A stretch of DNA of 63,062 nucleotides, the filler included, from Psammoneis japonica (taxonomy: Eukaryota), in the NCBI GenBank assembly GCA_008632985.1. It is 2 parts of 2 records of this genome, joined end to end, with 100 filler letters (N's around TTAATTAATTAA, not from the genome) between each part and the next. Parts side by side here need not be neighbours in the genome. Positions count along the whole stretch, not along the records: positions 31,937 to 63,062 come from QPGO01000398.1; 1 more part is not named here. The stretch is one strand, 5' to 3'. The notes below the pieces were generated by a model. The model was not told the DNA's origin. It saw only the letters and a program-made list of their open reading frames with translations, and did not search any database. This document shows positions 34,161 to 61,839 of the stretch, in pieces. Made by a program: the position numbers and the translations under genes. Numbering within the stretch: the first letter of the stretch is position 1; every line of letters starts with the position of its first letter.

Positions 34161-34485
34161 TTGCAAAGCCGCAGATTTTTCTTGCAGGGTGAAGAAATTT
34201 ACGATTCGAACGTCTGTCCTTCAAGGTGGGTCATGGCGTTGCAAAGCCGTAGATTTTTCTTGCAGGGTGAAGAAATTTACGGTGGGTCAGGATCGCGGGG
34301 GGGGGGGGGGGCAGACCGTGGAAGTCCAGCCGTCCATCCGTGGTTGAAAAGGCACCATGTGGTTCGCACGGCGACTCGCTCGATTCATCACTCCCAGCAT
34401 CTGACCCCCCCTTCCCTCACCTCGTGGAGACGGACGGGCACACCGCAGAAGTTGCAGCATTGCAAAGCCGCAGAATTTTCTCGTG
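34161..34485 (+). repeat. Short direct repeats (ttgcaaagccgYaga...), 3 copies, with a poly-G tract
   Basis: Copies at about 34161, 34239 and 34460. Confidence 0.8.
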
Positions 34486-39469: not shown

Positions 39470-41662
39470 GTCCATGTAACCACCGATGCGAAACGTGCCG
39501 TTGGTGACAAGCTTGACAGACCACGCATGTCCTTTTGAGTCGTTGACGTTTGCACACACGGTGCTGGTCTTTGTGCATCCCGTTTTGATGCAATTGAAAG
39601 GGTCAGTGTGATCTTTTGTGTTCTGGGAACGTGCATTTCGGTCATCGTTCTCGTTCTCAATCTGGTTGGCTGGCGTCGGCGAGTCTCATTTGTTCCTGTG
39701 CTGCAACGATGGGGGCTCTGTCGAGTGGTCAGAAGCATTGCGTGGGATGGTTTCGTTCTCATCAGCAAACGGCAGCGTGGCTGTGTCGTCGGCTGACGTC
39801 GGTCCGCAGTCGTCCTTTGCTGCTTGCAAAGACAAACACTTGCGCTGCAGGGTGACAATTTCTCTTCTGAGGACAAGGGCGCCAATTGCAGCCCTGAGCT
39901 TGGCTGCACATTGGCTGTCTTGAGCTTCGTTGTTGAAAGGTCGTTGGTTTTGAAAACCTGCGACCTCTGTCTCGTCCTCGCATCTTTGCATGGCGTCAAG
40001 CAGCTCCGCTGTCATTCGTTGGACAAGTTTGGGGATCTTGGACCAAACATCCATCCCGCGCAAAGAGCCGGGTTTGTGGTCAGGTCCGATCTCCACTTCT
40101 TCGGGGAGAGCCTTGACGCAATTCTGTCTGGCGCGACCAAATTCGATGCGGCAACGCATCTTGCTGTCGCGGGGATCCCTGCTTTTGTCAGGGCTGCCAT
40201 GCTGCAGAATTGCTCTGAGAATTGATGCAAAATTCACCCGCAAAGGACCAAAGTGTTTTTGAAAAATCCGGTTGGAAAACCTGAGAAAAGAAACCTTGTC
40301 CGTCAAGTGGGACGAAGCTTCCGTGGAGTGCGTGGTGGTGACTGCTGTCTCCTTCATTGGGTTGCTGGGCGGAAACCCATTGAAGAAGCCGTGATGGCAC
40401 TGGCGCAGATTGTCAATGAGGTGGCAATCGGCGGTGGTGTGGAGGAGAACGTGATGCACTGTGTTGGGTGGCAGGCCACCTGTGGGTGGTGTTTTCTCCA
40501 AAACGAGAAGGTGGGAGTGGCATCTCTTGACATCTGCAGGGCTGGACAGCAGGCAAGAATCAGGGAAACGGATTTTGAGTTCATCCTCTTCAAAATCATT
40601 GGGCAAAGACGGCAACACAACTGCTGGAGCTTTTTTTTTACGCCAAACCTTGCGCAACTTGGCCAGCTGTTCCTCGAATGTGGGCAACCTTTCCAGGGGG
40701 TCGGAAGAAAGAAGCGGCATTTCCTGCATTGATTCCATGGATGGGGTGGCCTGATCGGAACAGAGAGAGGCTGTGGCTTTGCATTTCCGTGCATTGCAAG
40801 TGATGGACGGGAGCACGCTGCCAAATCCCCTTTTCTTGTGGTGCAACGCCCAATCACGAAGCCGGGCTTGCCACATGGCCTCGCAACAATCACGGGCACG
40901 TTTGCTCGTTCCTGAATTGTTGGCGGCGGCGTTGCGCCGACAACATCTGACGCTGGCCTGAATCTTAGAATCAACGTGGTTGGAGTGCAACTGAATCCTC
41001 TCGACGGTCATCATTTGATTGCTCAAGTGAGCTTCCCAGTCGTTGCCTTTCTCAGCAAAGAGCTCCTTCACGAAAACGGGGTGGGTGACAGGGTTGTCAT
41101 CCTTGGTGGTCTCGCAGTGAGACAAGGCCAGAAAATTGTTCACAAAAGAAACGCATCTTTGCTCAGTGTCGCAATCGCGATGGAGCCGACAAAGCCAGTG
41201 CTCCGGGTTGTTGTTTTTTTCTGGGACATGTGGTGGAATTTTGTTGTGTGGAACAAGACATCCAACGTGCAGGAGTTGAAGATGTGTCATCAACTTGTTG
41301 GCAAAGCTTCTTGGTTGGATGTGGTTGACCAAAGGCTCACCGGAAAAAGGATCCAATGGATGAGGATCGTTCAACAAACCAAACAAGAGAAACACCTTCG
41401 CCATCATGTTTGTTGCCATTTCTGATTCAGAAAAAGCACCCGCCGATGTCATTTCTTCTGTCACGGGCACTCTTCTGTGCTCCAATTTGTGGGCTTTCCC
41501 ACCAGCCTGTTTTGAGTGACTCCATCCTTTTGCCTGCAACATTTTAACCAGAGTTTTGTGTCCGAGTTCAAACGCCACGATGCGGCACACCGACAAAAGC
41601 TCAGAAAAAAATTTCGCCGAGATTTGCGATGCTTCGACCAAACGTGCGGGAGCGCGAGCCAA
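39470..41662 (-). pseudogene. Large degenerate ORF of unknown function with a downstream HTDPFN segment
   Basis: 658-aa ORF with no Tyr; downstream segment HTDPFNCIKTGCTKT...DSKGHAWSVKLVTN starts at 39610. Confidence 0.4.
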
Positions 41663-44600
41663 TTGGCTGAGGGCTCACACGTTGAATTGCGGTGGAACAT
41701 GCGCTTTCTTCTTGCCGATTCGATGTGGACACGGAGTTTTGCCTTTTCACTCTCGTCAGTGATCCCCAATGTGCTCGAATTCATCGTCTTTGCCCTGCAA
41801 CGGGGTGTCGGCGGCGGGTGAATCGGAAGGTTCCTCGTTTCAGCACAGCGCCATGGTGGGGTGCTGTTTTGGGCGGTCAACTCGAATGCAGGGCATGGGC
41901 GGTTTGACGTAGAAAAGATGCCGGGTGGGAAGATTGGTGGAAAGATGTGCTGAATTCGCCCATGGAGTTCCACACGCACAAAAACTGCAACAGCGGCGAG
42001 GACAACACCAGCATGCATGGTTTGGGGCGGGGAGACAACACGCAAAAAGGGAGACGCACGTGTGTACGAACAGTGCCAAGAAAGGTGCACAAAAGCAAAG
42101 CAGATGGTGAGTTCGTTCGCCTGTGACGCACGCAACTTGAATTTAGAGCATTGCAAACATCGGGGCAGTTGGAAAATTGCCGTTTGTTTGATGTGAACCA
42201 AAATTGGGACATTCATTGTTGCACATCATTTGTTGAGAATGGCAAAAAAACCATTGCACATCATCTGCAGTTTGATTCCCCGGGAACAAAACTGCAGGAG
42301 GCTTTTTTCTGGCTGCTGGCAGGGCCCTGGGCGGAAGGAAGAAAGAAGTTGACGGCCCATTTTCTTTGGTGAAAGGAAGGCATGAATGCAAAAACTGGGT
42401 GTCCAACAATGGCAACAAGCCACCGGGAGGGTTGAGTGCATTGACAAGGTGCCGTTCAGTGCCTCGGAGGAGAGAGATGGACGGAAACCAGAGCATGCTG
42501 CAAAAAGATTCTGGGGGGCACGACAATGCAGGGAGGAGAGTGCCAAACATCAATCAACCTAAATGTGGTTTGCTTGTTGCCATCACAAAAAATGCCAGGA
42601 GCGGTGGGGAAGGTTTGGAGGAGCTGTTGTTCTGTGCGGGAACACGGGTGTTGGCAAATGGTTGTCTGGTGAGCGAAAACAAAAAGTGCAGCACACGTTG
42701 AAAACCCACGTGAGTTTTGCACTGTCACAAAAAAAGCCCATTGAGAAGCACGGCAACCAGCATCACCCACACACGGGTGTGAACACTGCGCTCCACACGG
42801 TGTGATGCTCTGCACAAATCCAGCGTGTCACACGCGTGTGCGCTGCGTGCACACACTTGAGCTCAGTCGCGCACACGCTTGGGAGGGCCTGCCTTGGCAG
42901 AGCGTGATGCAGTCTTTGGCTTCTTGTTGGGGATGGTCAAGGAAGGCTCTTGCATGGTGAATGTGAACAAGAGAACAAAACGTGGATGTGTGAGAAGACG
43001 GATGCACAAGAAACATGCTGCAACAAGGAGGGGGGGGGGGGGGGGGCATGTGCCGTCGTACAAAGAACAGGTGCCGTCTTTGCGGGTCCTCCCAATTTTG
43101 CATTTGGTTTTGGATTGACACTCTCATTTGTCATCATCATCCAAGCAGTCGGCCCTCTGATCACGCATTCTGCATTGAAGGATTGTGAGCAACTTGCTGC
43201 ACTTCAGTTGCATGCCAGGTTGTTCCTTGGGACAGCACTTCCCAAATTTGTGGCTCAACATGGAATTTGTTTTTTCTTCGTGCGCCTCTCAACGGGCAAG
43301 GGAATCACCATCCATTGTCACTTTGTTCTTTTGGAGTGAGGTGTTCCTCAATGTTGTCCGCCTGAGAGCCCGGGTTGTTGGAATTGCACGGCACTAGAAA
43401 GCTGTTGACGAACAGGCGCCACTCCTTTTGCGATTGGACATGGCAAAAAATCTGCATGAACCAGCAGTCGAAGTCATTTTGTTTGCACTGAACGTGACGC
43501 GTTGCGATTTCGGTGACAAAAAATGCACCGTGAAGGTCTTGTGCACGGTCGTCGATCAGTTTTTTGAGATTGTTGCACTTTGAAAACCGGGGACAAGGCT
43601 TGCTGGAAACGGGATCATTCAGGTCGTCACCGGCAACAATCGCACAGACAAATTCTGCCATGGCTTTGATGTTGCGGCGAAGATTCGTGCGGCGCACTTC
43701 TTGTTCAACTGTCTCTCCGGGCATTTTTGAGAAACAGAGAGCTTTGTCCAAATTTCGACAATGAAGGTGGCATTGACCTTTCAGCGAGCGGGATTTCTTC
43801 AGGGACCAACCACGAGTCTTGATGCAAGACCAAATGTCAGGGCATCCAAGAGTTTTCCCGACGATGTTGTTGGTGTGGACAACTTCCGCGACATGTGGAA
43901 TTCAGTGTAACTTCGGCTTGTGGCAAAGGAAGGGAAGAGCGAGAAATTGCGGAGAGGGAGTCCATTGTGTCGATTCCAAAAACTGCTTTTTGGATGCACG
44001 CATTGAAGCTGTGCTTTTGAGCTTGGGACCAAACAACTCCATTCCAAAACCATTGGCAAAATGTTCCATGTCATCAAAATCACATTCATCAGGAAATTGG
44101 AAGGAAGGATCGGGGTCGACCTCGTCATGAGACGGGGTGAAGTCATTGACCGCCATGGCAAGAGGTCAGTTGTGATTTGCGCAGAAAGCACGTGGATGAC
44201 AACAGCACATGCTCAGGTGGAAAGCAGTTTGGGGAGAGGATGTGCTGTCATGAAATGCGCAGACAGTTGCGCATGCAGAGCGAGTGCCCAAATCAGGGTA
44301 GAGAGCCATGCACAGAAATTCTGGGAGGTGCTGGAAAAATGATGCTGGAAATGTGCATGGGGGAGACTGGAGCGCACCGAACAGCAGAGGATGCACCAGT
44401 CAACACGGTGGGGTGTGTGTGATGTGGAGCTGTTAAAAACCAAAATCAAAGATGTCGGTTCAATGCAAATGTGACAATGAGATCAAATGGAAATTTACAA
44501 AATCCAATGAAAGCAAAAATCAAATTAAATTGTTGAGAATGATCAAACACAAACAGATGACAAATGTCAGCACAAAACGGATTTAATGAGTTCAGTGTGT

Positions 44601-44753
44601 TGTTTCAATTTACCTGCAAAAAATTGCAGTTGAAGGTGCAACAAAAACAACTTCAGTTGGCAACATTTGCGTGCAGAAAATTGAAAACCACCACATTGCC
44701 GCCTCTGATGTTTGCGCATTTGCTCATTTGCACACTTCCATGAAGCTCCAAAG

Positions 44754-45150
44754 GACGGGTTCCAGTCCCAGGTGGGACTCCGTGTGACATTGGGCCCTCA
44801 GAATTCTGCGTGCGAGCTCCGCAGTAAATTTGTGCTGCAATGAAAATGTGAATGATTGCCAACAGAAAAAGAGGCAATTTTGCGAATGTGTCTCCTCCTT
44901 CATGCTTGCTGCACATCATTGACAGTTTGCCCGGGTGTGCTCTTCAGACATTAAAGAATGCACCCAGTGTGTTTTTGTTCTCACAAATGTTGAAAATAGA
45001 AAGCCTTTGGCTTTGCAAAACAGGGAGCATGAAACAATTTCGTAGAATGTGACATGCAGAAATGTGCGTGCGCGACATGCGACGCGATCCAAAAAACCAT
45101 TGATGTCACAGTGCAGCAGTGCGAGGTCCCACCCAGAGCTGGAACGCGTC
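44754..45150 (-). mobile_element. MITE copy 2
   Basis: GACGGGTTCCAG...GGAACGCGTC; TSD AAAG. Confidence 0.9.
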
Positions 45151-45623
45151 AAAGGCGGTCTTTAATCGAGGACAATCTTTGCACATGACCCACCACATGT
45201 TGCAGGGGGGCACTGAAGGGACACAGCCCACTGGCAAGGGCACTGATCAAACAAGATTTGTGGTGCAAGTGTTTGGCGCTGGGGGCACTGGAGCAAAGCC
45301 AACGGGGACAACTGCTGCAAATGCCTTGGGAAAGCAGAGCAGGGTTTGTTGCTTCAAACAACACATGTGTTTGAGCAGAATGGAGCGCAGCACCGGTGGT
45401 GAGGACGGCAACACAAGGGAAGGAGACAAGGAGGCATGCGCCCACAAAAAATGGAGCTGATGTGGAGTGGACACATCAGCAACAAAAGAGGACATCACAA
45501 AAAAAGGGCGACATCACCTGCAGCTGTGGATCAAAGAACACTCGTGATGAGGCCAGGTCAAGCAAAATGGCTTCTGTGGCACATCAACAAATGCGTGCAT
45601 GGCACGGGAATGGCATGTTGGGG

Positions 45624-46012
45624 GACACGTTCCAGGTCTGGGTGGGACCTTGCACTGCTGAACTGTGACATCGACAGTTTTTTGAATCGTGTCGCATGTC
45701 GCGCACGTGCATTTCTACGTGATTTTGGCAAAATTTTGTGTGGTTTTACAGCACATTTGTCAGGCTGTCCATTGAACAACTTTTAATGTTTTTTTCTTCT
45801 GCGCCATTCTCGAGTGTCTTGAGAATGGCGTGGGGCAGGCGTGTTGTCCAAAACTTCGAGTGCGAACAGGGACAGATGCACCACAAACTTGGCCATTTTT
45901 TTTGTGTCGAAGACAAACACATCCATCAACCAGAGTGCGAACTGCAGAGCTTGCACACAGAATTCTGCGGGGCAAATGTCACAAAAAGTCCCACCTGGGA
46001 CTGGAACCCGTC
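45624..46012 (+). mobile_element. MITE copy 3
   Basis: GACACGTTCCAGG...GGAACCCGTC; TSD GGGG. Confidence 0.9.
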
Positions 46013-46269
46013 GGGGGAGAGAGGTCGACGTGCTCACCCAACATGCTGTGACCCCCAACATGCAGAACCGAGGATGAGCACATCATGGGGGACAAATGGG
46101 GGCTTCCCCATGATGCAGAGATGGATTTCACCAATTTGTCCCCTCACGTGCTGCATCTTGGCTTTTTTGTAAAATGCAACAATGACAACGTGAGGGCAGC
46201 TGCGACAACAACTTGAGTCACAAGGGTGGCACAACTGCTGCCGCTGCCACCGCCATTTTTCCATTCATG

Positions 46270-47310
46270 ATTTTGTGCCCTTGACCACTTTGCACTTTTG
46301 CTCTTCCTGGTTCATTGCCACTGGCCACTTTGTGCCCTTTGCGCCTTTGTGCCTTTTGCGCTGCCCTTGGCCAATTTGTGCCCTTTGCAACTTTGTGCCC
46401 TCAGCTGCTGTTTTGCACTCTCAATGCGTTCCAGCCCTGGGTGGGAGCTCGCAGCACTGACGTGTGACACAAATGATTTTTGTCATCCGTTGCATGTTTT
46501 GCACGCACATTTCTACGTGTGACATTTAAAAAAAATTGTCCAGACTTGCTGTTTTGCGAAGCCCCAGACGTTTTACATGACGAATTTATAGAAACAGCAA
46601 TGTGCCAGTTGCGTTCTTCAATGTCTGAAGAATGTAACTGGCCAAGTGAAAAACGATGTGCTTCAATCATGTGCGAGTTTGTGTGTTCGCAAAATTGCCT
46701 CATTTTCTGTTGGCAAACATTGACACTCTAATCACTGCATGATTTTGCTGCGGAGCTCGCACGTGGAATTCTACGGGCCCAATGTCACGCGGATTCCCAC
46801 CTGCGTCTGGAACGCGTCTCTCACTCCGTTTAGTGATTTTTTTTGTGCCCCAGGAAAGTTTGTGCCCTTTGTGATTTTGTGCCCTCAACTCCCATTTTTT
46901 GTCATTTTTTGTTTTGTGCCCTTGGCCATTTTGCACCTTTGAGATTTTGTGCCCTCAGTCATGTTGCACAATTCTTGATTTTGTGCCCTTGACCTTTTTG
47001 TGCCCTTGGCTGTTTTGTGCCCTTTCCTTTTTTTGTGCCCTTGAGCATTTTGTGCGTTTTGTGGTTTTGTGCCCTTGGCCATTTTGCGCCCTTTGTGACT
47101 TTGTGCCCTTGTCCATTTTGCGCCTTTTTTGGTTTTGGGCCCTCAGCCGCATTTGGTGCCCCTTGCGACATTGTGGTTTTGTGCCCTTTGCCATTTTGGA
47201 CCCTTCATGATTTTTTGCCCTTGGCAGCTTTGTGCCCTCAGCCACCATTTTGCACCCTCAGTCATTTTGTGACCTCAGCAATTTTGTGCCCCTGCCTGGT
47301 TTGTGCCCTT
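46270..47310 (+). repeat. Degenerate TTTTGTGCCC-motif array; continues at 54881-55010 after the Copia insertion
   Basis: Many ttttgtgccc(tt) motifs at about 20-bp spacing; the same sequence recurs near 56160, 57915, 59410 and 62260. Confidence 0.88.
46423..46818 (+). mobile_element. MITE copy 4, partly TpA-retaining
   Basis: AATGCGTTCCAG...GGAACGCGTC; TSD TCTC. Confidence 0.85.
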
Positions 47311-47480
47311 TGTCACGGTCAGCCAGAGCTCGCAGGACAGACAGACAGATGGACGGATGGACAGACAGAGCTCGTTCGCACTGACTCAGAGAGATGATGT
47401 CGAAGATTCTCTGACGCAGCCAGCTCATAGACCACAGAATGGTCGCAAACCTCTTTAGCTCACAATGTCTGCACAAGACA
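47311..47480 (+). repeat. 5' LTR
   Basis: tgtcacggtc...cacaagaca; matches 54711-54880. Confidence 0.95.
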
Positions 47481-47541
47481 GGTTGTGTGGCCCTCGTTGC
47501 CTCTGCAACCTTTTTGACAACAAACACCGCCAACACCCACC

Positions 47542-47937
47542 GACGGGTTCCAGCCCCAGGTGGGACTTTTTGTGACATTGGGCCCGCAGAATTCTGCGTG
47601 CGAGCTCCGCAGTAAAATCATCAAGCAATGAATGTGTGAATGATCGCCAACAGAAAAAGAGGCAATTTTGCGAACGCATCTCCTCCTTCACACTTGAAGC
47701 ACATTCTTTGTGGCATGCCCGGGTGTGTTCTTTGGACATTGAAGAACATGCCCTGTGCATTTTCATTGACATGAGTGCAGATGACAGAAAGCCTTTGGCT
47801 TTGCAAAACAGGCAGTGTGGAACAATTTTTTGCAACAGAACACGCAGAAATGTGCGTGCAAAACATGCGACGGATGACAAAAAACAATTGAGTCACAGTT
47901 CAGCAGTGCGAGGTCCCACCCAGAGCTGGAACACATC
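47542..47937 (-). mobile_element. MITE copy 5, nested in the Copia leader
   Basis: GACGGGTTCCAG...GGAACACATC; TSD CACC. Confidence 0.9.
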
Positions 47938-47944
47938 CACCACC

Positions 47945-50032
47945 ATGGCACCATCCTCCAGCACCAAACGCACTGGCAAGCCCAAATCGGGCAAGGGCTC
48001 TTCTGAATCACAGAAGCACAGCGCCACCGCGACGCCCTCACCATCTCATGGAGCGCGTCCCTCAAAAGAAGGGCGGGAAAGTCGACACGGCTCTTGATGA
48101 ACTCATCGAACATGCGCCCAAAAAGGCGCCGCGTGATGATGATGTCGACCGTCAGAACCCTGACGGCAATGCATTTAAGGACGATGACATGCGTGACAAT
48201 GACAGCATCGCAAAACTCACGTCAGTGACGAACTCGGATGACATGGACGTTTCTGACAACAACAGTGTCTCGTCTGACAAGTCCAACAAGTCCAATGCGG
48301 AAACCCCCCGCAAGCGCACCAAAAAGCACTTGTCCAAGCGCAAGTGTGAGAGGCTTGCCGCTCACATTGACAAAGTCACTGCAGCTGCATGCGCTGACAA
48401 GCGCATTGCACAACTGGCCAAACCGCTAGAAGACAAATTGACTGTGTCCCCTGAGTCATTCTTTGACTTCCTCTTTTGTCTTGAGGAATGTCTTCAGAGC
48501 TCCCCTGTGTTGGCAAAAGTCATGAAGCTCGACAACGGCATGTCTTTGACAAAAGGCTTCACCAAAGTGGTGCTGTGGGGTGTTGAAACCGACGAGGTCA
48601 TCGCCAAGAAATCCGATGACCAGACATCCATGCATTTCATGCAACGTGCGCTCAAGGCCCTGCTTGTTGCCTCGCATGACAAAGAGCTGCATCAGGTGAT
48701 TGTGTCTGATGAAAATGTCATGGATCATCTCCACAAGGACGGTGCAATGTGCTTCTGCCATGGCTTCAAGCAGCTGTTCCCGTTGCCCGAGATGCATGTC
48801 AACGGCATCCAGACAAAATTGTCCAAAGTTTCTCTCATTGACGATTGCAATGGCAATGTCAGCGCGTGCACGCATGAGTTCAGGCAGCACCTCTGCCTGG
48901 TTCACAAGCGTGACGACACGCTTGAGTGCACTCTTGTCGAGAAAGCCTTCAACAAACTCCAAACCGCCGCATGCAAGCCATTCGCAGCCAAGATGGCCCA
49001 GCATGAGACTGATTGGATGCACAAGAAACACGTCAAATGGACCGTCGAGACCCTGTTCAAGGAAGCCAACAGCCTCCAGATGGCGCTTGAGGCACAGAAT
49101 CTTTGGGACAAACCTTCCACGGAAGAAACCCAGTTCATGGCCATGCTGGCTCAGAACGAACAGCTCGCCAACTTCGCGCAGCAGATGACGAAGGTCGCCT
49201 CTGCTTTCCAGTCGTCCCTGCAGCAGAGTTTGCGGTGCAAGCATCGCAACAACCGTTGCAACCGCTGCGACAACCGCCGGGGACATCAGGGTCATGGTGG
49301 TTGCGGAAACGGTCGTGACCACGCACCTCGCCGTGGCTCCCCTCCGTTCTTGCACATTGAACCCGAGAACAAAGAAGCGGAAAAGGAGTGGGGCAACAAG
49401 AAGTGGCACTGGTGTGATGCATGCAAGATGCACTCCACTCGCCACAGCACCGTCACCCACAACAAATGCATTGCCTCCAACAACAACAAGAGTGGCAAGC
49501 GTCCTGGAAACGCACAACCCAAGTCTGGATGTGACCACAAGCACCAGCTCAGAACGAACAGCTCGTCAACTTTGCGCAGCAGATGACAAAGGTCGCCTCT
49601 GCTTTTCAGTCGTCCCTGCAGCAGAGTTCGCGGTGCAAGCATCGCAACAACCATTGCAACCACTGCGACAACCGCCAGGGACATCAGGGTCGTGGTGGTT
49701 GCGGAAATGGTCGTGACCGTGCACCTCGCCATGGTTCCCCTCCGTTCTTGTGCATTGAACCCGAGAACAAAGAAACGGAAAAGGAGTGGGGCAACAAGAA
49801 GTGGCGTTGGTGTGATGCATGCAAGATGCACTCCACTCGCCACAGCACCGGCACCCATGACGAATGCATTGCCTCCAACAACAACAAGAGCGGCAAGCGT
49901 CCTGGAAATGCGCAATCCAAGTCTGGATGTGACCACAAGCGCCAGAAGGCTGGTTCCAAGATTCAGCAGGATGTCGACAAGCTGCAGAAATTTGCTGCAA
50001 ACTTGTCCCTCTCTCAATCTGTTGCCTCTTGA
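47945..50032 (+). pseudogene. gag: Copia gag, degenerate
   Basis: ORF 48048-49586; knuckle-like WHWCDACKMHSTRHSTVTH; internal duplication. Confidence 0.75.
49149..49944 (+). repeat. 398-bp tandem duplication of the gag 3' part
   Basis: gctcagaacgaacagctcg at 49149 and 49547. Confidence 0.92.
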
Positions 50033-50099
50033 ACAGAAGAGGGGAGAAGGCAATTGGAAAACAACCAATGTTCCACACTGCTTAGGATCCGGTTTTGTT

Positions 50100-53000
50100 C
50101 ATGCACTTTGCCTGGATCGGTCAAAATCAAAGCAAAAGTGCGAGACTTTCACCACAAGTTTTAAAATTGCACCAACAGAGACATGGTCTTGTGAGCGAAA
50201 TTGTTGATGATGCCCGCGCATTTGAAACAGCTCTTGAAAACCGCGGACGCTTCATCCGTGGTGGCCATGTGCAAGCAAGACCTCACTCGACATCTGCATT
50301 TGTTGACAAACGCGATGCACCACAACTGGTCAAAGCACATGAGACTGCTGCTGCCAGAACTCCTGAGGAGAACAAGGAGTCACCAAACACTCTGGCAGAG
50401 CATGCTGCACATTTGGCAGATGAGGTGCCAACCCTCACATCCGACGAGACACATCTCATCATTGACTCGGGTGCTTCCACCACAATTTGAAACAATGAAA
50501 ATGACTTTGTTGGTTGCATGCGACCCATCCAAAACTTGGACTTAAAGGGTGTTGCATCTGGCCCAGCCATTGAGGGCATTGGCATGGTGAGATGCGGCTT
50601 TGTGGATGACAATGGCAACAATTTTGCCATTGATGTCAACAATGTGCTGTGTGCACCCACCTGCCCGGTTCATCTGCTGTGCCCTCAACAAGTGGCAGCT
50701 GCCAGCCCCAATGAGGACACAGATGGGTTCTTTGCAAGGGGCAAGTCCACGACAATGATCTGTGGACAACATCGCAAAACCGTGCAATGCCATCACGAGT
50801 TGAATCTGCCGATTCTTGCTGCGGCTCCAGGCTTTGGCAATTTTTGAGCTTTCTGCTCTGACATTGATGCAAATGGCAAACTGCCACCTCGCACCAACAC
50901 AAAGGCATGTTCGGCTTCGCATCCGGCTTTTGCTGTCACAACAAGAAAGCAAAAGGCGGCGGCCAACACAAACAAACAACAGACTTCTTACAATCAGCAG
51001 AGCAAAAAGTCAAACGAAAACAAAAAGAAACCAAGGCCTGCTCAGCCTCAACAGGACCTGCCAGTCCACGAGGGGGGCACAGAAGACAACCTGCTTCCCA
51101 TCCAATGCGACATGTTGAAATTGCACCATCGCATGGGACACGTTGGTTTTGAACAAATCAAAGAATGGGCCAAGATTGGTGCTGTGCCAAAACGCTTTGC
51201 AAAATGCAAAGCTCCAGTCTGCAAAGCATGTGCTTGTGCAAAAGCCAAGCGCAAGGCAGCTCAACGTGGTCACCGCATCAATGAATGCCACGACAACGCT
51301 CCAGGTCAAGGAGCATCTGCGGATCAACTTGATGCGAGTCATCCGGGCCCACTTCCCACTTCTCGTGGCAAACCAACTGCTTGCAGGTGCAAACATTGCA
51401 CTCTGTGGATTGATCACTTCTCTGGATTTATCCATCCTCACATGCAAGAGTCCACTGGAGGAAAAGAGACCTTGACTGGCAAAACCAAGCTCGAGAGATT
51501 CACAGCAAAACACAATGTAAAAATCGAGCACATTCATGCCGATTGACGGCACATTCGCCGCCGCAGAGTTCACACAACACTGCGTTGAAAACAAACAACG
51601 AAACTCCTTTTGTGGAGCAGGAGCACACTGGCAAAACGGCATCTTGGAATGCTGCACAGGCGTCATCACCTCGATGGTGCGAACACACCTGTCACACGCT
51701 CAGCCCCTCTGGTCTGATGCAGCAACCATGGAATTATGGCCATTTGCCATCAGACAGGCTGTCAATTTCCACAATGTGTGCATCCGAAAAGGAAAAGAGA
51801 AAAACCCCTGGGAGCTGTTCACTGACAAGAAACCGCCATTTCAAATGGACGATTTTTGCGTGTGGGGGTGTCCTGTTTACATCGTGGACAAAAGTGTCCA
51901 AGGCGGGACTCACATTGGAAGATGGGCCGAACGGTCATGCCAAGGGGTGCACGTGGGACATTCGCTGGACCATGCCAGCAATGTCCATTTGGCATGGGAC
52001 CCCACAACCAAACACGTCTTGCCACAATTTCATGTCACATTCGACGAAAACTTTGCAACAGCAGTGCCTGGAAAGACATCAAGCAATGATCTTGAGGCAG
52101 CTCTTGAAAAATCATTTGATGACCATGCAAACACTTGGACTCACCATGATGAACATTTCGACCACAATCAACATTGTTTTGAAAAGAATGTTTGGAGCAA
52201 GGACGACTTGCTCTGCAAACATGGTGTTGACCCTCAAGCGTGCAAACAGGCGCAAAAGACCAACCACAAATCATGAGGGAGAAAAAGAGACTGTGCTGGA
52301 CAAGAAAAGCCAGACGATGATGACACACCATCTGAGATTCTGCCAGCTGTTGATGTCTCGGCCGACACACCGACACATGTGGCAGCTGCACTGGCAGACA
52401 CAACAATGCCAGCAGAATCGGCACACGCTGAAGCCTCCGAGGCTGCGCCACCTGCAGCAGGAGGTTCTGTGTCGGAGAGAGCAGAGGGGACCCACTCATT
52501 GTCAAACCGACTGCTGTCAGTTGACAATGCAACACCGTTGATTGTAGAAAATGCAGTCACCCAGGGCCCAACTGTGGCAACTCCAGAGGATGCTGCAACT
52601 TCTTCGCCAACGAAAGAAGCCCTCCAACATTCAAACAATGAAGCAGACTGTGCTCGTCATCAACTTCATGAATGCAAATGCCAAAAAGGTTTAGATGACG
52701 ATGCGACTTGCACAACAGCACAGAACAATGCAAAAAACAGCAACTCACCTGATGCGAACGCGCACATCACAACACCTCTGTGCCACAAAGAAGTTGCAGC
52801 TGAGCCACACGAAGAGCTTGCACATCTGATGGCACTTGTGGGTTCAGCAGACAATGACATGCTTCTCGACGAAGACACATGGAATGAATCCAGTCCACTC
52901 ACTTTCGAAGCAGCGGCGCCAGGAGACGTCGACACCCTGACCCAGGGCCAGATGAAAAGAGCACCAGACCGTGCCAAATTTGAAAAAGCCCAAGTTCCAG

Positions 53001-54520
53001 AAACACAAGGGCTGGCAGATGTGGATGCATGGGAACACATGCCACGTTCTGAAGTGCCAAAAGACCACCGGCTGTCAAGTGCAATCTGGTCACACAAAAG
53101 AAAAAGGAAACCAAGTGGTGAGCTTTCAAAACACAAAGCCAGAATGTGCGTCGACGGTTCCAAACAACAACGTGGAATGGACCATTGGGACACATTCGCC
53201 CCAGTCGTCGCATGGAGTGCGGTGTGACTGACATTGTGTCCAGCGGCAATCGCCGGTCTGAAAAGCAGACAAGTGGATCATGCGCAAGCATTTCCACAAG
53301 CAGAGCTGGAAGAACCAGCATGTGTGAGACTCCCAGAAGGGTGGGAAGTGAAAGACAAAAATGGAAACATCATGCCAGACATGGCATGCAAACTGAAAAA
53401 GAACTCACGCGGCATGAAAACTGCTGCACGAAACTGGTTCCAGAAACTGTCAAAGGGGCTGGAACAATGTGGTTTCAAGAAATCAAAAATGGACCCATGT
53501 CTGTTCATCAGAAATGACTGCATCATCTGCTTGCACACAGATGATTGTTTGGTTTTTGCTCCAACGAACTACATTGTCACTGCACTCATGCAAGAACTCA
53601 AGCAAGACGAGCTTCAACTTGCCGACGAAGGCGATGCACCCGCTTTCCTCAGTGTGGATGTCGCCAATGCCGTCGACGGCAAAATCCACATGACCCAGAC
53701 AGGTCTTGTTGATTCCACGTTGAAAGACCTCGGTCTGAGGTCCCACAACAATGAACCATTGCAGAACAGGCCACAAACAAAGGCTGCTCCAGCAGCACAA
53801 ATGCTGCACCCTGACACAGACGGTCAGGAGCATCAAGAACCGTGGAACTGCCGGTCTGTTGTCGGAAAGATGAGCTCTCTGGCACAAATGACTCGACTGG
53901 ACATTGCAGTGGCAGCGCACATGTGCGCCAGATTTTCCAACTGCCCAAAGGCATTGCACGAACAAGCAGTTGAGCGCATCGGACGTCATCTGCTGGCAAC
54001 TTCAACAGACGGCATTGAGCTCCGGCCGAAAGGGAAATTCTCCCTGGGTGCATGTGTTGACAGCGACTTCGCGGGAATGTGGCACAGAAATTTTGCCCAT
54101 CTCCACGAATCGCACCTGTCATGATCAGGGTGTGTTGCCACATTTGCAGGCTGTCCAATCTGTTGGAAGAGCGAGGCTGAACTCGTTGCACTGTCACAGT
54201 GCCTGAGAGAGCCACTTCCAATGAGAGCTGTGCCAGAAGAACTGTCCAAAACCATGGATTTTGAACTGGCAAATTCACACATTGAATCTGGTTCTCTGGA
54301 AACTCGTGTGCTTCCACACAAGCTTCCCCCGTCCACAGCGCATGAAGACAAAACAGGATGCACTGCACTGGCCACCTCTGACAAGCAATGCAGAGCTGGA
54401 GCCAAGCACACAAGCATCAAATGGATGCACTTTTGGGACCACACAAAACGTGGTTCTGTGAAGAAGGCAGTGAAAGTTGGCGACACATTGAGCAGTCCAA
54501 ACAGACTGCTGCTTCACTCA
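50100..54520 (+). pseudogene. pol: Copia pol (protease, integrase, RT, RNase H) with stops and frameshifts
   Basis: IIDSGAS; LHHRMGH...CKAC; HIHAD, QNGILE; HKARMCVDG, DTFAPVV, CLHTDDCL; ACVDSDFAG, HEDKTGC, KHTSIKW. Confidence 0.92.
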
Positions 54521-54710
54521 AAAACAGCATTTTTGGACGTGTGCAAACAGCATTTTTCGCTTCGCTTGTGCTCGAAGCACGAGGGAGAGAAACACCCTGG
54601 ACACACCCCAGACATTTTCCAGGAATGCTCTGGAGGCTGTGCGCAGATGTTGCTGCATCGGCTTGGCTCCATTGCTGGCATTGGTCAGAGCCCTCGTTGA
54701 CACGAGGGAG

Positions 54711-54880
54711 TGTCACGTTCAGCTGGAGCTCACAGGACAGATGGACAGACGGACGGATGGACAGACGGAGCTCATTCGCACTGACTCAGAGAGATGATGT
54801 CGAAGATTCTCTGACGCAGCTGGCTCGTGGACCACAGAACAGTCGCAAGCCTCTTTGGCTCACAACATCCACACAAGACA
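54711..54880 (+). repeat. 3' LTR
   Basis: Preceded by PPT gagggag and followed by TSD ccctt. Confidence 0.95.
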
Positions 54881-55539
54881 CCCTTTGTGATTTGGTGCCC
54901 TCAACAGACATTTTTTGTCCTTTTTGATTTTGTGCCCTTGGCCATTTTGCTGGTCACGACAGAGCTGCAGAACAACAAGAACCTGCCCGATGAAGAGCAT
55001 GGGGCAAAGGAGAGAAAGTGCGTGAGATGCCTGAAGCACTTCACGGCAGGGAGCTCCAAGAACGGAGATGCGGAAGGGAGCGCACCCAGGAAACGCAAGA
55101 GGGAGGACTTTTGCAGGAAGATTGTGGCAGAGCGTGACAGGAAAGTGGAGGAGGGGGGCAATGGGCTGGGGGATGAGGAAAGCCACGTGGCGGGTTGCAC
55201 TGAGACACACGAGCTGGAGCCAACACCTGTTTGGCAGACAATGTGTGAAAAGTGGCAGTCATGTTTGTTGCAAATGACGTTGCAGACACAATCTAAATTG
55301 AGCGACTGCACTCCACGGCACCAGCTGGAGAGCAACTGGGGAAGGGCACAACACGGGTGGTGCCTTGGGAAACCAGTCAACTGATCTGTTGTCAGTCAGC
55401 TGTTGAATGTGTTTGAGTGGGTGCGCCGGAGTTTTTGGCCCGCTCACTTTCCACGTGGCCTGGAACAACCCAAATCTGTGTAGATTCAGCACGCTTTGCC
55501 CTGCAGAACAGTTTTTGGGAGCGTTCTCTGGCTCGCGGC

Positions 55540-56005
55540 TCAAAATGACACGCAAAATGGCACGGACAATGGCGTTTTGCCAAGTTGAAAAATGCGATTG
55601 TCTCTGAGGTCGGAACCTGGATGCTCTCAACAGAACTCGGTGCGTTGTGTCATCTTGTGCGAGATGAGCTCGAGAGCATCCAGGTTCACATGGGTGGATT
55701 GTGGCGAAAATTCTTGCTGAAGGCTCGCACTGACAATGTCGCTTCTGTTGAATCACAACCAGCCTCATGTGCTGCCATTTGTGCTGTGTGTTTTGGGTTG
55801 GCAGCCACTCAATTTGCGCGCAGCTTCTCTTTCTACACCGCTCTTTTGTTTGCCCTGCGGGACAATTTTTTGGGAGTGTTTTCTGGCTCTGCGGATCAAA
55901 ACAACACGCAAAACAGCACGGACAATGGCGTTTCGCCAAGTTGAAAAATGCGATCGTCTCTGAGGTCGGAACCTGGACACTCTCAACGGAATTTGGTGCA
56001 TCACA
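55540..56005 (+). repeat. Direct repeat pair with about 356-bp spacing in an unclassified element
   Basis: cacggacaatggcgttt...caagttgaaaaatgcgat...tctgaggtcggaacctgga at about 55561 and 55917. Confidence 0.75.
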
Positions 56006-57133
56006 TCATTTTCGCATTTTTGCATTTTCGCTGGCGGTCTTCAAATCAAGAACAATCTCGCCACATGTTGCAGGGGGGCGCTGAAGGGCCACAGCCCACT
56101 GGCAGGGTGCTGATCAAACAAGATTTGCGGCACAAGTGTTTGGTGCTGGGGGCACCTTTGAGATTTTGTGCCCTCAGCCATGTTGCGCAATTCTTGATTT
56201 TGTGCCCTTGACCTTTTTGTGCCCTTGGCTGTTTTGCGCCCTTTCCTTTTTTTGTGCCCTTGAGCATTTTGCCCCATCTCGTGGTTTTGTGCCCTTGGCC
56301 ATTTTGTGCCCTTTGTGACTTTGTGCCCTTGTCCATTTTGTGCCTTTTTTGGCTTTGGGCCCTCAGCCGCATTTGGTGCCCCTCATGATTTTGTGCCTTC
56401 AGCAATTTTTGGCCATTGTGGTTTTGTGGCCTTTGCCGCCTTGGACCCTCTCTGATTTTTTGCCCTTGGCAGCTTTGTGCCCTCAGCCACCATTTTGCGC
56501 CCTCAGTCATTTTGCGGCCTCAGCAATTTTGTGCCCCTGCCTGGTTTGTGCTCTTTGTGATTTGGCGCCCTCAACAGACATTTTTTGTCCTTTTTGATTT
56601 TGTGCCCTTGGCCATTTTGCTGGTCACGACAGAGTTGCAGAACAACAAGAACCTGCCCAACGAAGAGCGGGGCAAAGGAGAGAAAGTGCGCGAGATGACA
56701 AAGTTGGACCCAACAGCACATGCATCAGCACGCGAGTCCAAGTCGTTGGCTGCCTTGCCGTGTGAATGCCCAGCAGATGACAAAGAGACATGTGGACAAA
56801 TGCAGATTTTTTCAAGGAAATCAAACGTCAAGGAAAACAAGCGCGTCGTTTCAAGGAAAACAAACACGTCATTTGAAGGAAAACAAGCGTGTCATTTCGA
56901 GGAAAACAAACACATCTTTTCAAGGAAAACAAACGCGTCGTTTCAGGGAAAACAACACGTGGTTTCAAGGAAAACAAACGTGTCTTTTCAAGGAAAACAA
57001 ACCTGTCAAACAAACGTGTCATTTCAAGGAAAACAAGCACGTCGTTTCAAGAAAAACAAACGCGTCATTTCAACAAAAACAAACACGTTGTTTCAAGGAA
57101 AACAAGTGTGCTTTTTTTTAAGAAAAACAGACC

Positions 57134-57387
57134 TTTCGCATTTTCGCATTTTCGCATTTTCGCATTTTCGCATTTTCGCATTTTCGCATTTTCGCATTTT
57201 CGCATTTTCGCATTTTCGCATTTTCGCATTTTCGCATTTTCGCATTTTCGCATTTTCGCATTTTCGCATTTTCGCATTTTCGCATTTTCGCATTTTCGCA
57301 TTTTCGCATTTTCGCATTTTCGCATTTTCGCATTTTCGCATTTTCGCATTTTCGCATTTTCGCATTTTCGCATTTTCGCATTTTCGC
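57134..57387 (+). repeat. Perfect (TTTTCGCA)n octamer array
   Basis: 30 perfect units at 57141-57380 plus partial flanking units. Confidence 0.97.
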
Positions 57388-57456
57388 TGTCTTCAAATCG
57401 AGGACAATCTCTCCACATGTTGCAGGGGGGCGCTGAAGGGGCGCAGCCCGCTGGCA

Positions 57457-57852
57457 GACGTGCTCCAGCTCCAGGTGGGACCTCACACCACTGAACTGTG
57501 ACACAGTCATTTTTTGTCATCCGCCGCATGTTTCGCGCGCAAATTTCTGCGTGTTCTGTTGCAAAAAATTGCTCCACACTGCCTGTTTTGCGAAGCCAAA
57601 GGCTTTCTGTCATCTGCGCTTGTGCCGACAAAAACGCGCTGGGTGTGTTCTTTGATGTCTAAAGAACACACCCGGGCATGCTGCAAAGAATGTGCTTCAA
57701 GTGTGGAGGAGGAGATGCGTTCGCAAAATTGCCTCTTTTTCTTTTGGCGATCATCCGTGCATGTGCTGCTTGGCAATTTTGCTGCGGAGCTGGCACGCGG
57801 AATTCTGCGGGCCCAGTGTCACAAAAAGTCCCGCCCAGGACTGGAGCCCGTC
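57457..57852 (+). mobile_element. MITE copy 6
   Basis: GACGTGCTCCAG...GGAGCCCGTC; TSD GGCA; empty site cactggcaggg in sister units. Confidence 0.9.
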
Positions 57853-60077
57853 GGCAGGGCGCTGATCAAACAAGATTTGTGGCGCAAGAGTTTGGCGCTG
57901 GGGGCACCTTTGAGGTTTTGTGCCCTCAGCCATGCTGCCCAATTCTTGGCTTTGTGCCCTTGACCTTTTTGTGCCCTTGGCTGTTTTGCGCCCTTTCCTT
58001 TTTTTGCGCGCTTGGGCACTTTGCCCCATCTCGTGGTTTCGCGCCCTTGGCCATTTTGCGCCCTTTGTGACTTTGTGCCCTTGGCCATTTTGCGCCTTTT
58101 TGGGTTTTTGGGCCCTCAGCCGCATTTGGCGCCCCTCATGATTTTGCACCCTCGGCAGCTTTTGGCCATTGTGGTTTTGTGCCCTTTGCCACCTCGGACC
58201 CTTTCTGATTTTTTGCCCCAGGCAGCTTTGTGCCCTCAGCCACCATTTTGCACCCTCAGTCATTTTGTGACCTCAGCAATTTTGTGCCCCTGCCTGGTTT
58301 GTGCTCTTTGTGATTTGGCGCCCTCAACAGACATTTTTTTGTCCTTTTTGATTTTGTGCCCTTGGCCATTTTGCTGGCCACGACAGAGTTGCAGAACAAC
58401 AAGAACCTGCCCGATGAAGAATGTGGGGCAAAGGAGAGAAAGTGTGCAAGATGACAAAGTTGGGCCCAACAGCACATGCATCAAAACAAAACCAAACATC
58501 TGTGTTTTAAGCGCTGCTGCGCTTCCACCCTGCAACTCCGGCAACAAGCCAACCCACACCCCCAGCGCACCATTGGTGCGGCAGGAGCAAACAGCGATTG
58601 GCCGAGATTTTCGTCACCCGAGGGTGACGCCGCGCCGAAATGACTTGCAGCGGTTCTTGTGCCTCGTGCAGCCAACCGTTTGGCTTCCCGCATGCTTGAT
58701 TTAAAGACTGGTTTGAACACAGCCAGCCAGTTTCGAAGCCTGTGTGTTGAGTGTGTTGGGTGGTCTTCCACCAAATCCAGGAGGAGCGCTTTGTCTCTGG
58801 CCAGACAATCATCCGTTCGGGAGCAAATGGCTCCAACCTTCGCTTCCGCATCTCTCCTCTGAGAAGATTTCCTGGTTTCCGAGTCGTGCAGGTTTTTTCA
58901 AGGAAAACAAATGTGTCGTTTCAAGGAAAACAAACACGTTTTTTCAAGGAAAACAAACATGTCGTTTGAAGGAAAAAAAAATGCGTCATTTCGAGGAAAA
59001 CAAACATGTCTTTTGAGGGAAAACAAACGTGCCGTTTCAGGGAAAACAAGCACGTGGTTTCAAGGAAAACAAGCACGTCTTTTCAAGGAAAACAAACCTG
59101 CAAAACAAACATGTCATTTCAAGGAAAACAAGCACGTCGATTCAAGAAAAACAAACACGTTGTTTCAACAAAAACAAACGCGTTGTTTCAAGGAAAACAA
59201 GTGTGTTTTTTTTAAGAAAACAAACCTTTCGCATTTTCGCATTTTCGCATTTTCGCATTTTCGAATTTTCGCATTTTCGCTGGTGGTCTTCAAATCAAGA
59301 ACAATCTCGCCACATGTTGCAGGGGGGCGCTGAAGGGCCACAGCCCACTGGCAGGGCGCTGATCAAACAAGATTTGCGGCGCAAGTGTTTGGCGCTGGGG
59401 GCACCTTTGAGATTTTGTGCCCTCAGCCATGTTGTGCAATTCTAGATTTTGTGCCCTTGACCTTTTTGTGCCCTTGGCTGTTTTGCGCCCTTTCCTTTTT
59501 TTGTGCCCTTGAGCATTTTGCCCCATCTCGTGGTTTTGTGCCCTTGGCCATTTTGTGCCCTTTGTGACTTTGTGCCCTTGTCCATTTTGTGCCTTTTTTG
59601 GCTTTGGGCCCTCAGCCGCATTTGGTGCCCCTCATGATTTTGTGCCTTCAGCAATTTTTGGCCATTGTGGTTTTGTGCCCTTTTCCGCCTTGGACCCTTT
59701 CTGATTTTTTGCCCTTGGCAGCTTTGTGCCCTCAGAAACCATTTTGCGCCCTCAGTCATTTTGTGACCTCAGCAATTTTGTGCCCCTGCCTGGTTTGTGC
59801 TCTTTGTGATTTGGCACCCTCAACAGACATTTTTTGTCCTTTTTGATTTTGTGCCCTTGGCCATTTTGCTGGTCATGACAGAGCTGCAGAACAACAAGAA
59901 CCTGCCCAACAAAGAGCGGGGCAAAGGAGAGAAAGTGCGCGAGATGACAAGGTTGGACCCAACAGCGCATGCATCAGCACGCGAGTCCAAGTCGTTGGTT
60001 GCCATGCCACGCGATTGTCCAGCAGATGACAAAGAGACGTGTGCGTTCATTGGGAATCGTCTGGACAAATGCAGGTT

Positions 60078-61740
60078 TTTTCAAGGAAAACAAACGTGTC
60101 GCTTCAAGGAAAACAAACACGTCGTTTGAAGGAAAACAAACACGTCGTTTGAAGGAAAACAAACACGTCATTTCAAGGAAAACAAGCGTGTCTTTTCAAG
60201 GAAAACAAACACGTCATTTCAGGGAAAACAAACACGTGGTTTCAAGGAAAACAAACACATCTTTTCAAGGAAAACAAACATGTCTTTTCAAGGAAAACAA
60301 ACCTGTCAAACAAGCGTGTCATTTCAAGGAAAACAAGCACGTCGTTTCAAGAAAAACAAACGTGCACTTTCAACAAAAACAAACATGTTGTTTCAAGGAA
60401 AACAAATGTGTTTCTTTTGAGAAAAACAAACATGTCTTTTCAAGTGAAACAAACACGTCTTTTCAAGAAAAACAAACACGTCATTTCAAGGAAAACAAAC
60501 GTGTCTTTTCAAAGAAAACAAACACGTCGTTTCAAGGAAAACAAACGTGTCTTTGCAAGGAAAACAAACACATTGTTTCAAGGAAAACAAACACGTCGTT
60601 TCAAGGAAAACAAGCGCGTCATTTCAAGGAAATCAAACAGGAAAACAAACATGTCGTTTCAAGGAAAACAAACACGTCATTTCAAGGAAAACAAACACGT
60701 CGTTTCAAAAAAAACACACACAATTTTTTTTGACAAAAACAAGCGCGCTGTTTCAAGGAAAACAAACATGATGCGCTCCAGGTCCAGGTGGGACCTTGCA
60801 CTGCTGAGCTGTGACATCGACAGTTTTTTGAATCGCGTCACATGTCGCGCACGTGCATTTCTGCGTGATTTTGGCAAAATTTTGTGTGGTTTCATGGCAC
60901 AATTGTCGGGCCATCCATTGAACAACTTTTGACATTTTTTTCTTCTGCGCCATTCTCGAGTGTCTCAAGAATGGCGCAGGGCAGGCACGCTGTCCAAAAC
61001 TTCGAGCGCGAACAGGGACAGATGTGCTGCAAACGCAAGCTTGGCCATTTTTTTGTGTCGAAGACAAATGTGTCCATTGGCCAGAGCACGAACTGCAGAG
61101 CTCGCACGCAGAATTCTGCGGGGCAAATGTCACAAAAAGTCCCGCCTGGGGCTGGAACCCGTCACATGTCTTTTCAAGAAAAACAAACACGTCTTTTCAA
61201 GGAAAACAAGCACGTCGTTTCAAGGAAAACAAGCACGTCGTTTCAAGGAAAACAAACACGTTGTTTCAAGAAAAACAAACACGCCATTTCAATGAAAACA
61301 AACATGTTGTTTCAAGGAAAACAAGCGTGTGTTTTTGAGAAAAACAAACGTGTTGTTTCAAGGCAGACAAACACATGTTTTTAAGAAAAAACAAACTTTG
61401 CAAGGAAAACAAACGTGTCTTTTCAAGGAAAACAAGCACGTCTTTTCAAGGAAAACAAGTGTGTCTTTTCAAGGAAAACAAACATGTTGTTTCAAGGAAA
61501 ACAAACACGTCATTTCAAGGAAAACAAACACGTTGTTTTGATGAAAACAAACATGTTGTTTCAAGGAAACCAAACATGTTTTTTCAAGGAAAACAAGCAT
61601 GTCTTTTCAAGGAAAACAAACATGTCTTTTCAAGGAAAACAAGCGTGTCTTTTCAAGGAAAACAAACACGTCATTTCAAGGAAAACAAACACATCATTTC
61701 AAGGAAAACAAACACGTCGTTTCAAGGAAAACAAACACAA
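60078..61740 (+). repeat. Approximately 22-bp minisatellite (TTTCAAGGAAAACAAACACGTC-like); also at 56810-57125 and 58895-59225
   Basis: Dozens of caaggaaaacaa cores. Confidence 0.92.
60770..61163 (+). mobile_element. MITE copy 7
   Basis: GATGCGCTCCAGG...GGAACCCGTC; TSD ACAT. Confidence 0.9.
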
Positions 61741-61839
61741 GACTGGCCAGACAGAAAGGCACACCCGCGCGCTCTCGAGCTCTCAAACTTTGTTTTGAGA
61801 AAAACGCGTTGAAAAGAATTTTGGCCAACCACAAACATT

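Follow-up and report, generated by a model that had tools for sequence, protein, structure and literature searches.

Near-saturating loss of TpA dinucleotides from a Copia element and other repeats in the diatom Psammoneis japonica

Repeat-induced point mutation (RIP) of ascomycetes changes C to T at CpA and raises TpA; it is triggered by duplicated homology, acts premeiotically and depends on RID. TpA hypermutation was measured in the rhizarian alga Bigelowiella natans as new mutations in integrated viral DNA, with ADAT2 proposed as the enzyme; by the account in the preprint's main text, the rate is raised about 1,000-fold per generation and the process runs in only some of the lines (Mettrop et al., bioRxiv, 10.64898/2026.01.13.699255). 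That main text nowhere contains the words diatom, LTR, CpG or trinucleotide, and literature listings and abstract openings yielded no description of TpA hypermutation in diatoms. Targeted mutation of adenine in chromosomal DNA has hardly been reported in nature, and our searches turned up a single preprint, on a distant alga. Here we analyse a 63,062-nucleotide stretch of the diatom Psammoneis japonica (GenBank assembly GCA_008632985.1; hereafter the window), composed of two parts joined by filler letters, and the long terminal repeat (LTR) retrotransposon of the Ty1/Copia type at 47,311 to 54,880 in its right part (QPGO01000398.1). We are close to certain that A:T to G:C transitions, confined to TpA and near saturation, hit this element and many other repeats after insertion.

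Left of the gap between the parts, among ordinary genes, the observed/expected (o/e) ratio of TpA is 0.43-0.70 in 14 of 16 bins, and across the 31-kb repeat block right of it, from which TA is nearly erased (Table 1), CA and TG are raised. A DNA search of the genome with the element returned ten matches, including a TA-normal sister copy (C267) at ~90% identity. At 157 TA sites of the sister, the window copy is changed at 149 (71 TG, 71 CA and 7 CG), unchanged at six and otherwise different at two. TG or CA replaces 63 of the sister's 169 CG sites, and columns outside the TA/TG/CA/CG set differ at 51 of 1,681. Three-way polarisation, using a more distant TA-normal copy as outgroup, assigns to the window branch changes at 119/237 TA adenines, 53/277 CpG guanines, 45/1,239 other adenines and 10/1,031 other guanines (non-CpG G to A). 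On the sister branch there are 10 TA changes; a further 14 look like TG to TA, but some of these may be misread parallel changes. The coding consequences follow the same direction: of the 23 Tyr residues encoded by the natural frame of the sister, 22 are replaced by His, Cys or Arg in the window copy, with Trp (20/20) and Lys (51/51) unchanged. At nine mostly-Tyr columns of the reverse transcriptase (RT), scored on 120 of 516 outside homologs, Tyr occupies none of the nine positions in the window copy and six in the sister. Because all Tyr codons and the stops TAA and TAG contain TA, the process destroys proteins and leaves long false open frames.

The original prediction, made from the window alone, held that the paired LTRs of the element differ almost exclusively within the TA/TG/CA/CG set; 19 of 21 differing columns, in a gap-free alignment of 170, do fall in this set, which spans 84 of the 170 columns. 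Its tally of six CA/TG doublets (47324, 47342, 47421, 47440, 47466 and 47470), two TA/TG sites (47429 and 47457), several CG-type sites (on the present count four CA/CG and one CG/TG) and one transversion (47318) was correct apart from an overlooked AA/AG transition at 47449. Placing 20 random transitions on either LTR produced at least six doublets in 0 of 200,000 trials and at least 19 in-set columns in 1 of 200,000. The ancestry of the doublets, TA or CG, had been left open and can now be read from relatives, which hold TA at 47324, 47421, 47440 and 47470, CG at 47342, and TA, TG or CA at 47466, where the ancestor was probably TA. The doublets therefore stem chiefly from TA, and CpG decay is a second source that works more slowly. 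What had been missed is the main process itself, a directional TpA to TpG/CpA hypermutation with CpG decay superimposed. Either adenine of the palindromic TA can be the target, a single hit yielding TG or CA. One hit removes the target on both strands and the LTRs are hit separately, so that a site may read CA in one LTR and TG in its partner. The CG-type differences and one doublet are explained by decay of CpG to TpG/CpA, which proceeds more slowly in these tracts.

The same spectrum recurs in LTR pairs genome-wide, as had been predicted. Among 25 loci, four gave no pair, and the 21 pairs obtained, from several families, contain 241 substituted columns, 198 of them in the set (146 single TA changes, 16 doublets and 20 CG-type changes); several uncertain ends in this sample add false transversions. 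In 12 clean-ended pairs, for which 11 of the 21 were left out and two others added (the C189 pair not being independent of the window copy), transitions make up 131 of the 139 substitutions and transversions the other 8; divergence over all columns is 4.0%, falling to 1.5% once the set is excluded. The best 30 RVT_2 loci separate into 13 with a TA o/e of 0.73-0.79 and 17 with 0.07-0.38. The targets are LTR retrotransposons, miniature inverted-repeat transposable elements (MITEs), other repeats and dead gene copies. Beyond this genome, no Tyr-stripped RT homolog occurs among 120 listed of 516, and no metagenome locus among 80 kept of 177 has a TA o/e under 0.4; both samples favour intact copies, and their search patterns require Tyr or Tyr/Phe.

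Erasure takes place after insertion and requires time. The youngest insertions are untouched, with two elements carrying identical, TA-rich LTRs, and a 100%-identical MITE remains TA-normal within erased DNA. LTR pairs range from identical and TA-rich to one LTR erased beside an intact partner, which polarises the change within a single element. The earlier placement of the changes in chromosomal DNA, on both strands, agrees with the balance of outcomes (71 TG : 71 CA) and the lack of strand runs, and the pairs with one erased and one intact LTR bear out its dismissal of RNA editing before reverse transcription. Two C189 copies, 96-97% alike to the window element, share both flanks or the 3' flank only with it and therefore duplicate its insertion. 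Such duplicates agree on the TG-or-CA outcome at 135/140, 71/74 and 74/75 sites (96-99%), and independent insertions at 50/91 and 19/37, about half. The outcome was thus random at first and then inherited, which is not what context-driven base-calling error gives. In the public run X1, 542 of 3,025 compared contigs are at least 99% alike to erased sequence. Contigs of 216 bases depart from it at just 4 and 7 letters, although ~10 former TA sites should fall within that length; this support is not independent, as X1 may be the source sample and its platform is not on record.

The sequence context was resolved in a young family, using a reference copy with identical LTRs and 15 copies within 1.4% of it outside the set. 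Across 1,483 hits, the relative rate by the base 3' of the adenine is C 4.3, T 2.3, G 1.6 and A 1, giving the order TAC > TAT > TAG > TAA, which is reproduced in partly erased zones (71/418, 39/275, 19/251 and 17/222; p=3e-4). An apparent preference two bases 5' of the adenine was rejected: it is the 3' preference seen from the opposite strand, and the position has no effect in partly erased zones (p=0.20). A sense-strand excess of 833:650 likewise disappears once context is fitted (logit -0.12, p=0.08), and palindromic TA sites favour neither strand (175/345). The strand runs that a processive one-strand enzyme would leave are missing (z -1.36 to 1.09), hits on the two strands being interleaved. 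In the same copies, erased zones show four times the CpG decay of intact ones (34/1,465 vs 21/3,684), and A to G outside TA rises likewise (39/4,528 vs 26/14,297). Within erased zones, themselves defined by TA hits, TA changes ~19x as often per base as CpG (418/962 vs 34/1,465). The copies are not fully independent, with a median outcome agreement of 0.61 over 120 pairs. Three pairs stand well above this median, with 80%, 93% and 100% agreement (C44 with C388; L097 with L137; L125 with L128), probably through a shared history of conversion, duplication or transposition of a partly erased template. Together, the data establish a mutation of repeat DNA that is restricted to TpA and to transitions, affects both strands, limits itself and depends on time.

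Erasure in the young family is also polar. Both outer thirds could be aligned in 22 of the 24 copies compared, and 19 copies have at least 15% erasure in one of these thirds. The 5' third is the more erased in 13 of the 19 and the 3' third in three, with three even; the three copies favouring the 3' third are erased by at least 61% at both ends. Eight copies combine a 5' third 30-96% erased with a 3' third at no more than 11%, and the reverse, an erased 3' third with an intact 5' third, occurs in none of the 19. A 5' bias among the best RVT_2 scorers could reflect selection for intact RT, and the polarity was therefore retested on copies from a DNA search. GC and CpG are somewhat more abundant in the 5' part, so composition may contribute. 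Spreading from erased flanks was rejected as a general rule: 5' flanks with 24-62 TA per kb adjoin 5' thirds that are 68-90% erased, and one intact copy adjoins an erased 3' flank. The TA-rich 5' flanks of several copies indicate that the tract begins inside the element. In this family, the tract appears first in the 5' (gag) part and arrives at the 3' end later, a pattern that hints at loading at the 5' LTR or gag region via transcription or spreading chromatin.

As the mechanism we lean, with modest confidence, towards adenine deamination to hypoxanthine by a TadA/ADAT2-fold deaminase that would gain access to silenced, cytosine-methylated repeat DNA. At replication, hypoxanthine would be taken for G. 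Transient single-stranded DNA tied to transcription from the 5' LTR may provide the access, and the effect, perhaps the function, would be to disable mobile DNA. The restriction to transitions, the near requirement for a 5' T and the slight A to G leakage point to an adenine-centred enzyme, and TAC, the best context here, is reported as the preferred motif of the base editor ABE7.10 and its parent, E. coli TadA (PMC8065034). The concentration of CpG decay in erased zones, together with 29 C5-methylase matches in the genome, suggests a link between the process and methylated chromatin. The genome's ADAT2 is a predicted deaminase and carries the Asn taken as the pivotal ADAT2 residue of the preprint.

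Several observations weigh against this account. That Asn is present in all four eukaryotic ADAT2 structures aligned and so does not set this enzyme apart, and the deaminase set is an ordinary one, with one ADAT2 and two A_deamin genes; in the stretches scanned, the deaminase genes lack a chromatin-reading domain. Were the route tied to transcription, one strand might be hit more often, and at palindromic sites neither is (175/345). The polarity comes from one family only, found with a search probe that lay in the 3' third. As to defence, one family reached at least 23 copies regardless. Finally, an A-centred TAC preference is indistinguishable by sequence from a T-centred GTA preference on the other strand. 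The two A_deamin genes (ADAT1/ADAR-type) are separate loci, L076 (C40) and L077/L078 (C79), and by motif the other deaminases are presumably one bacterial-type TadA together with dCMP, RibD and guanine-deaminase-like genes. A wider proposal, that diatoms and rhizarian algae share a natural TadA/ADAT2-fold DNA adenine base editor as a genome defence, and that in this diatom it loads at the 5' ends of LTR elements, moves with transcription or spreading silent chromatin and strips every Tyr codon, is speculative, and we would sooner expect it to fail than to hold.

The ambiguity of strand gives some room to an account in which base modification at TpA is primary, either as N6-methyladenine with subsequent deamination or as oxidised thymine pairing with G, and mutation is a by-product as for 5-methylcytosine at CpG. 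Like CpG, TpA is a palindrome, the two dinucleotides are lost from common tracts, and the context can be read as T-centred (GTA>ATA>CTA>TTA). The ~19-fold excess of TA over CpG change in TA-defined zones is fast for passive decay. The genome gave no TET/JBP match, a blank family search that is not proof of absence; no MT-A70 match, with a control that gave no match anywhere, so that absence is unproven; and no N6/N4 methylase match, where absence is likewise unproven. We consider this account unlikely.

Miscopying by Y-family polymerases at WA constitutes phase two of somatic hypermutation, WA being the motif of polymerase eta. An analogous error-prone patch repair, in which a Y-family polymerase recruited by excision at deaminated 5-methylcytosine inserts G opposite T at WA, would explain both the co-location with CpG decay and the low-level A to G leakage. 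It sits poorly with adenines on the window branch, where AA is not above CA or GA (14/423, 18/419 and 13/397) and TA is saturated, and with the near absence of transversions (8/139 in the 12 clean pairs) and of strand runs. These points render patch repair improbable.

Little probability, too, attaches to a RID-related, DNMT4-type protein running a homology-triggered, RIP-like process with reversed chemistry (T to C or to 5-methylcytosine at TpA). Diatom DNMT4 is reported to cluster with fungal RID and to be of unknown function (PMC9998398), and this grouping favours the idea. By similarity, one methylase here is nearest to ascomycete methylase clusters in Atlas (0.95). No chemistry that would let a C5 methylase convert T into C is known to us. 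Tandem repeats of 84 bp in a host leucine-rich repeat (LRR) gene, 85-93% alike, are TA-normal, so duplication by itself is insufficient for erasure; several copies of a dispersed repeat escape erasure at their ends, and the B. natans target is single-copy in the preprint's account.

CpG decay alone, or a reversed direction in which CG or CA/TG was ancestral and the TA-normal copies gained TA by ordinary RIP, is very improbable. Doublet 47342 does derive from CG, and 63/169 CG sites have decayed. Against this, outside homologs hold Tyr where the window copy has His, Cys or Arg, TA-normal copies carry genome-typical TA, CA and TG, and polarisation puts the change on the erased branch, which refutes the idea as the main cause.

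TAG (UAG) is the motif that ADAR prefers, and TAG is disfavoured here. ADAR- or APOBEC-like editing of RNA or cDNA before integration would leave a one-strand signature common to both LTRs; instead, the strands are equal, the LTRs of one element are hit separately, flanks and non-retrotransposing repeats are affected, and the youngest insertions are untouched. A 5' U/T preference common to ADAR, as given in the preprint's text (10.64898/2026.01.13.699255), and the two A_deamin genes speak for such editing, which the one-erased/one-intact LTR pairs refute and to which we assign hardly any credence. An assembly or base-calling artefact at a modified base, which the missing platform record for the assembly and run X1 and the possible identity of X1 with the source sample would allow, is scarcely credible, because recurrence, equal strands and inheritance by separately assembled duplicates (96-99%) exclude it, the same contexts have opposite outcomes in 5' and 3' LTRs, and X1 holds near-identical contigs (542/3,025 at 99% or above; 4 and 7 letters different in those of 216 bases).

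For the window element, divergence-based dating is misled, as the original prediction anticipated. The Kimura two-parameter (K2P) distance of the LTR pair is 0.141, compared with 2/86 columns or 2.3% outside the set (95% interval 0.3-8.1%), so that LTR dating exaggerates its age about sixfold, with a wide error; the 2.3% is itself inflated by A to G leakage. The same prediction called the element young. Total LTR divergence does overstate its age, but the element is not among the youngest, given its MITE insertion, 398-bp duplication, broken frames, at least two copyings with flanks after most of the erasure, and a loss of 37% of CG sites, against 1.4-6.2% per tenth in the younger family. In the duplicated insertions L020/L022 and L027/L026, 14 columns differ in the 5' LTR and one in the 3' LTR, a hint of either gene conversion or ongoing mutation at the 5' end.

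Table 1. Features of the window, in order of position. TA-erased, TpA nearly absent; TA-normal, TpA at a typical level.
Feature	Coordinates	Strand	Remarks
Second erased tract	13052..15554	.	Within 3-kb dispersed repeat (12728-15720), gene region
Young MITE, 391 bp, TA-normal	14218..14608	.	Inside second erased tract; two 100% identical copies elsewhere
TA-erased repeat block with Copia element	31937..63062	.	TpA observed/expected 0.01-0.10; CpG 0.5-1.1
Left target-site duplication CCCTT	47306..47310	+	Within 17-bp satellite
5' LTR, 170 bp, TG...CA	47311..47480	+	2 TA remain; TA-normal relatives hold 11-14
MITE-like insertion just inside 5' LTR	47540..47937	.	TA-erased; related to TA-normal MITE 14218-14608
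Putative gag-position frame, 564 aa stop to stop	47892..49586	+	Assigned by position and DNA similarity to related copies; without Pfam match
Internal tandem duplication, 398 bp	49149..49945	+	Units differ at 28 columns, 21 in TA/TG/CA/CG set, 0 involving TA
Integrase region, two frames	50848..52276	+	GAG-pre-integrase PF13976 (E 2e-5, below curated cut-off); SH3 PF25597 (above cut-off)
Reverse transcriptase RVT_2 PF07727	52277..54124	+	TGA stop interrupts
Probable RNase H-position remnant with deletions	54125..54700	+	Assigned by position; without Pfam match
Purine-rich tract preceding 3' LTR	54699..54710	+	Identical in 6/6 3' LTRs compared
3' LTR, 170 bp, TG...CA	54711..54880	+	0 TA remain
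Right target-site duplication CCCTT	54881..54885	+	

The element is assigned to Ty1/Copia by its paired 170-bp TG...CA LTRs with a CCCTT target duplication, within the 4-6 bp typical of the group, and by integrase domains (PF13976, below its cut-off, and PF25597) upstream of RVT_2 PF07727. A conserved GGTTGTG follows the 5' LTRs, where a tRNA primer-binding site would be expected. No RNA dataset is listed as containing the element.

The boundary between gene and repeat regions falls in the gap of Ns with its TTAATTAATTAA linker (31837-31936) and is unreadable there. The dispersed repeat in the gene region (12728-15720), which has no Pfam match, retains TA at both ends: its left ~320 bp do so here and in at least two other copies, its right end here and in one other, and erasure does not extend to the adjoining genes. 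A copy on C5 is largely TA-normal between erased flanks. The 391-bp MITE family has many near-identical young copies (1,421 candidates), the young ones TA-normal and older relatives erased; older relatives in the window lie at 44754, 45624, 47540, 57457 and 60770. The LRR gene noted above (8446-12591, minus strand) is a 1,381-aa frame in which the 84-bp LRR-like tandem repeats are followed by a GTPase-like motif, and which, from this motif, we take to be ROCO-like. At 57134-57387, a perfect array of the 8-mer TTTCGCAT stands among 17-bp and 23-bp satellites, its uniformity suggesting expansion after erasure. Loss of TAA and TAG stops across 31937-63062 has opened many long frames without a Pfam match, a trap for gene callers.

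Elsewhere in the genome, extra C5 DNA methylase copies are TA-erased, with a core TA o/e of 0-0.11 (L144-L146, L150, L153, L156 and L157 on C301, C297 and C28), as is a deaminase copy on C151 (L075). In L087, L016, L089 (C7 336-346 kb and 363-369 kb) and L033 (C10), CpG is nearly gone as well, at 2-22 CG per kb vs ~50, and these domains depleted in both dinucleotides are probably the oldest erased DNA. The genome also has 24 silicon-transporter matches, which mark the host as a diatom, one 1,511-aa frame (L164-L166, C38) holding three units; an Atlas search with a gene of the window did not place the host.

For annotation, the consequence is that erased elements appear several times older than they are; LTR dating, repeat annotation, and GC and codon analyses in such genomes should mask TA/TG/CA/CG columns. 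With this second case, which is saturating and has both a motif that can be read and a front running 5' to 3', the enzyme and its targeting become testable. A natural deaminase of DNA adenine, if true, would be of interest for base editing.

Compared with other Ty1/Copia LTR retrotransposons, the window copy has the usual TG...CA LTRs, 5-bp target duplication and integrase-before-RVT_2 order, and differs in being dead and Tyr-free. Like RIP of ascomycetes, the process is dinucleotide-specific, transition-only and repeat-targeted, wrecks transposons and inflates LTR divergence. Its direction is opposite: RIP makes TA from CA/TG through C to T at CpA, whereas here TpA is lost, CA and TG are gained, GC rises and stop codons are removed. 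Strand runs are lacking, and repeats are the targets, yet LRR tandem repeats and repeat ends are spared. Decay of 5-methylcytosine at CpG explains the five CG-type single differences and one doublet of the window LTRs, is slower here and cannot act on TA. TadA-derived adenine base editors and the tRNA deaminase ADAT2/3 are reported to share the A to G change and the preference for a 5' T and a 3' C (PMC8065034); they are engineered or tRNA-directed, and a chromosomal role here is a proposal.

The closest match is B. natans, as described in the main text of the preprint (10.64898/2026.01.13.699255). In both, A:T to G:C changes at TpA yield TpG and CpA in sharply bounded foreign or mobile chromosomal regions, and a deaminase is proposed, as a candidate only. 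Here, the change is near-exclusive to TpA (119/237 TA adenines vs 45/1,239 others), both outcomes arise (71:71), and mobile-DNA regions are bounded with genes spared. The host is a diatom, a stramenopile, and not a rhizarian; the targets are LTR retrotransposons, MITEs, repeats and dead gene copies instead of viral DNA; and TpA o/e falls to 0.01-0.1, near saturation, compared with 0.45 in their viral region. Neither the 3' base preference with TAC best nor the 5'-to-3' polarity is described in the main text consulted, and the CpG decay in the same tracts is a further difference.

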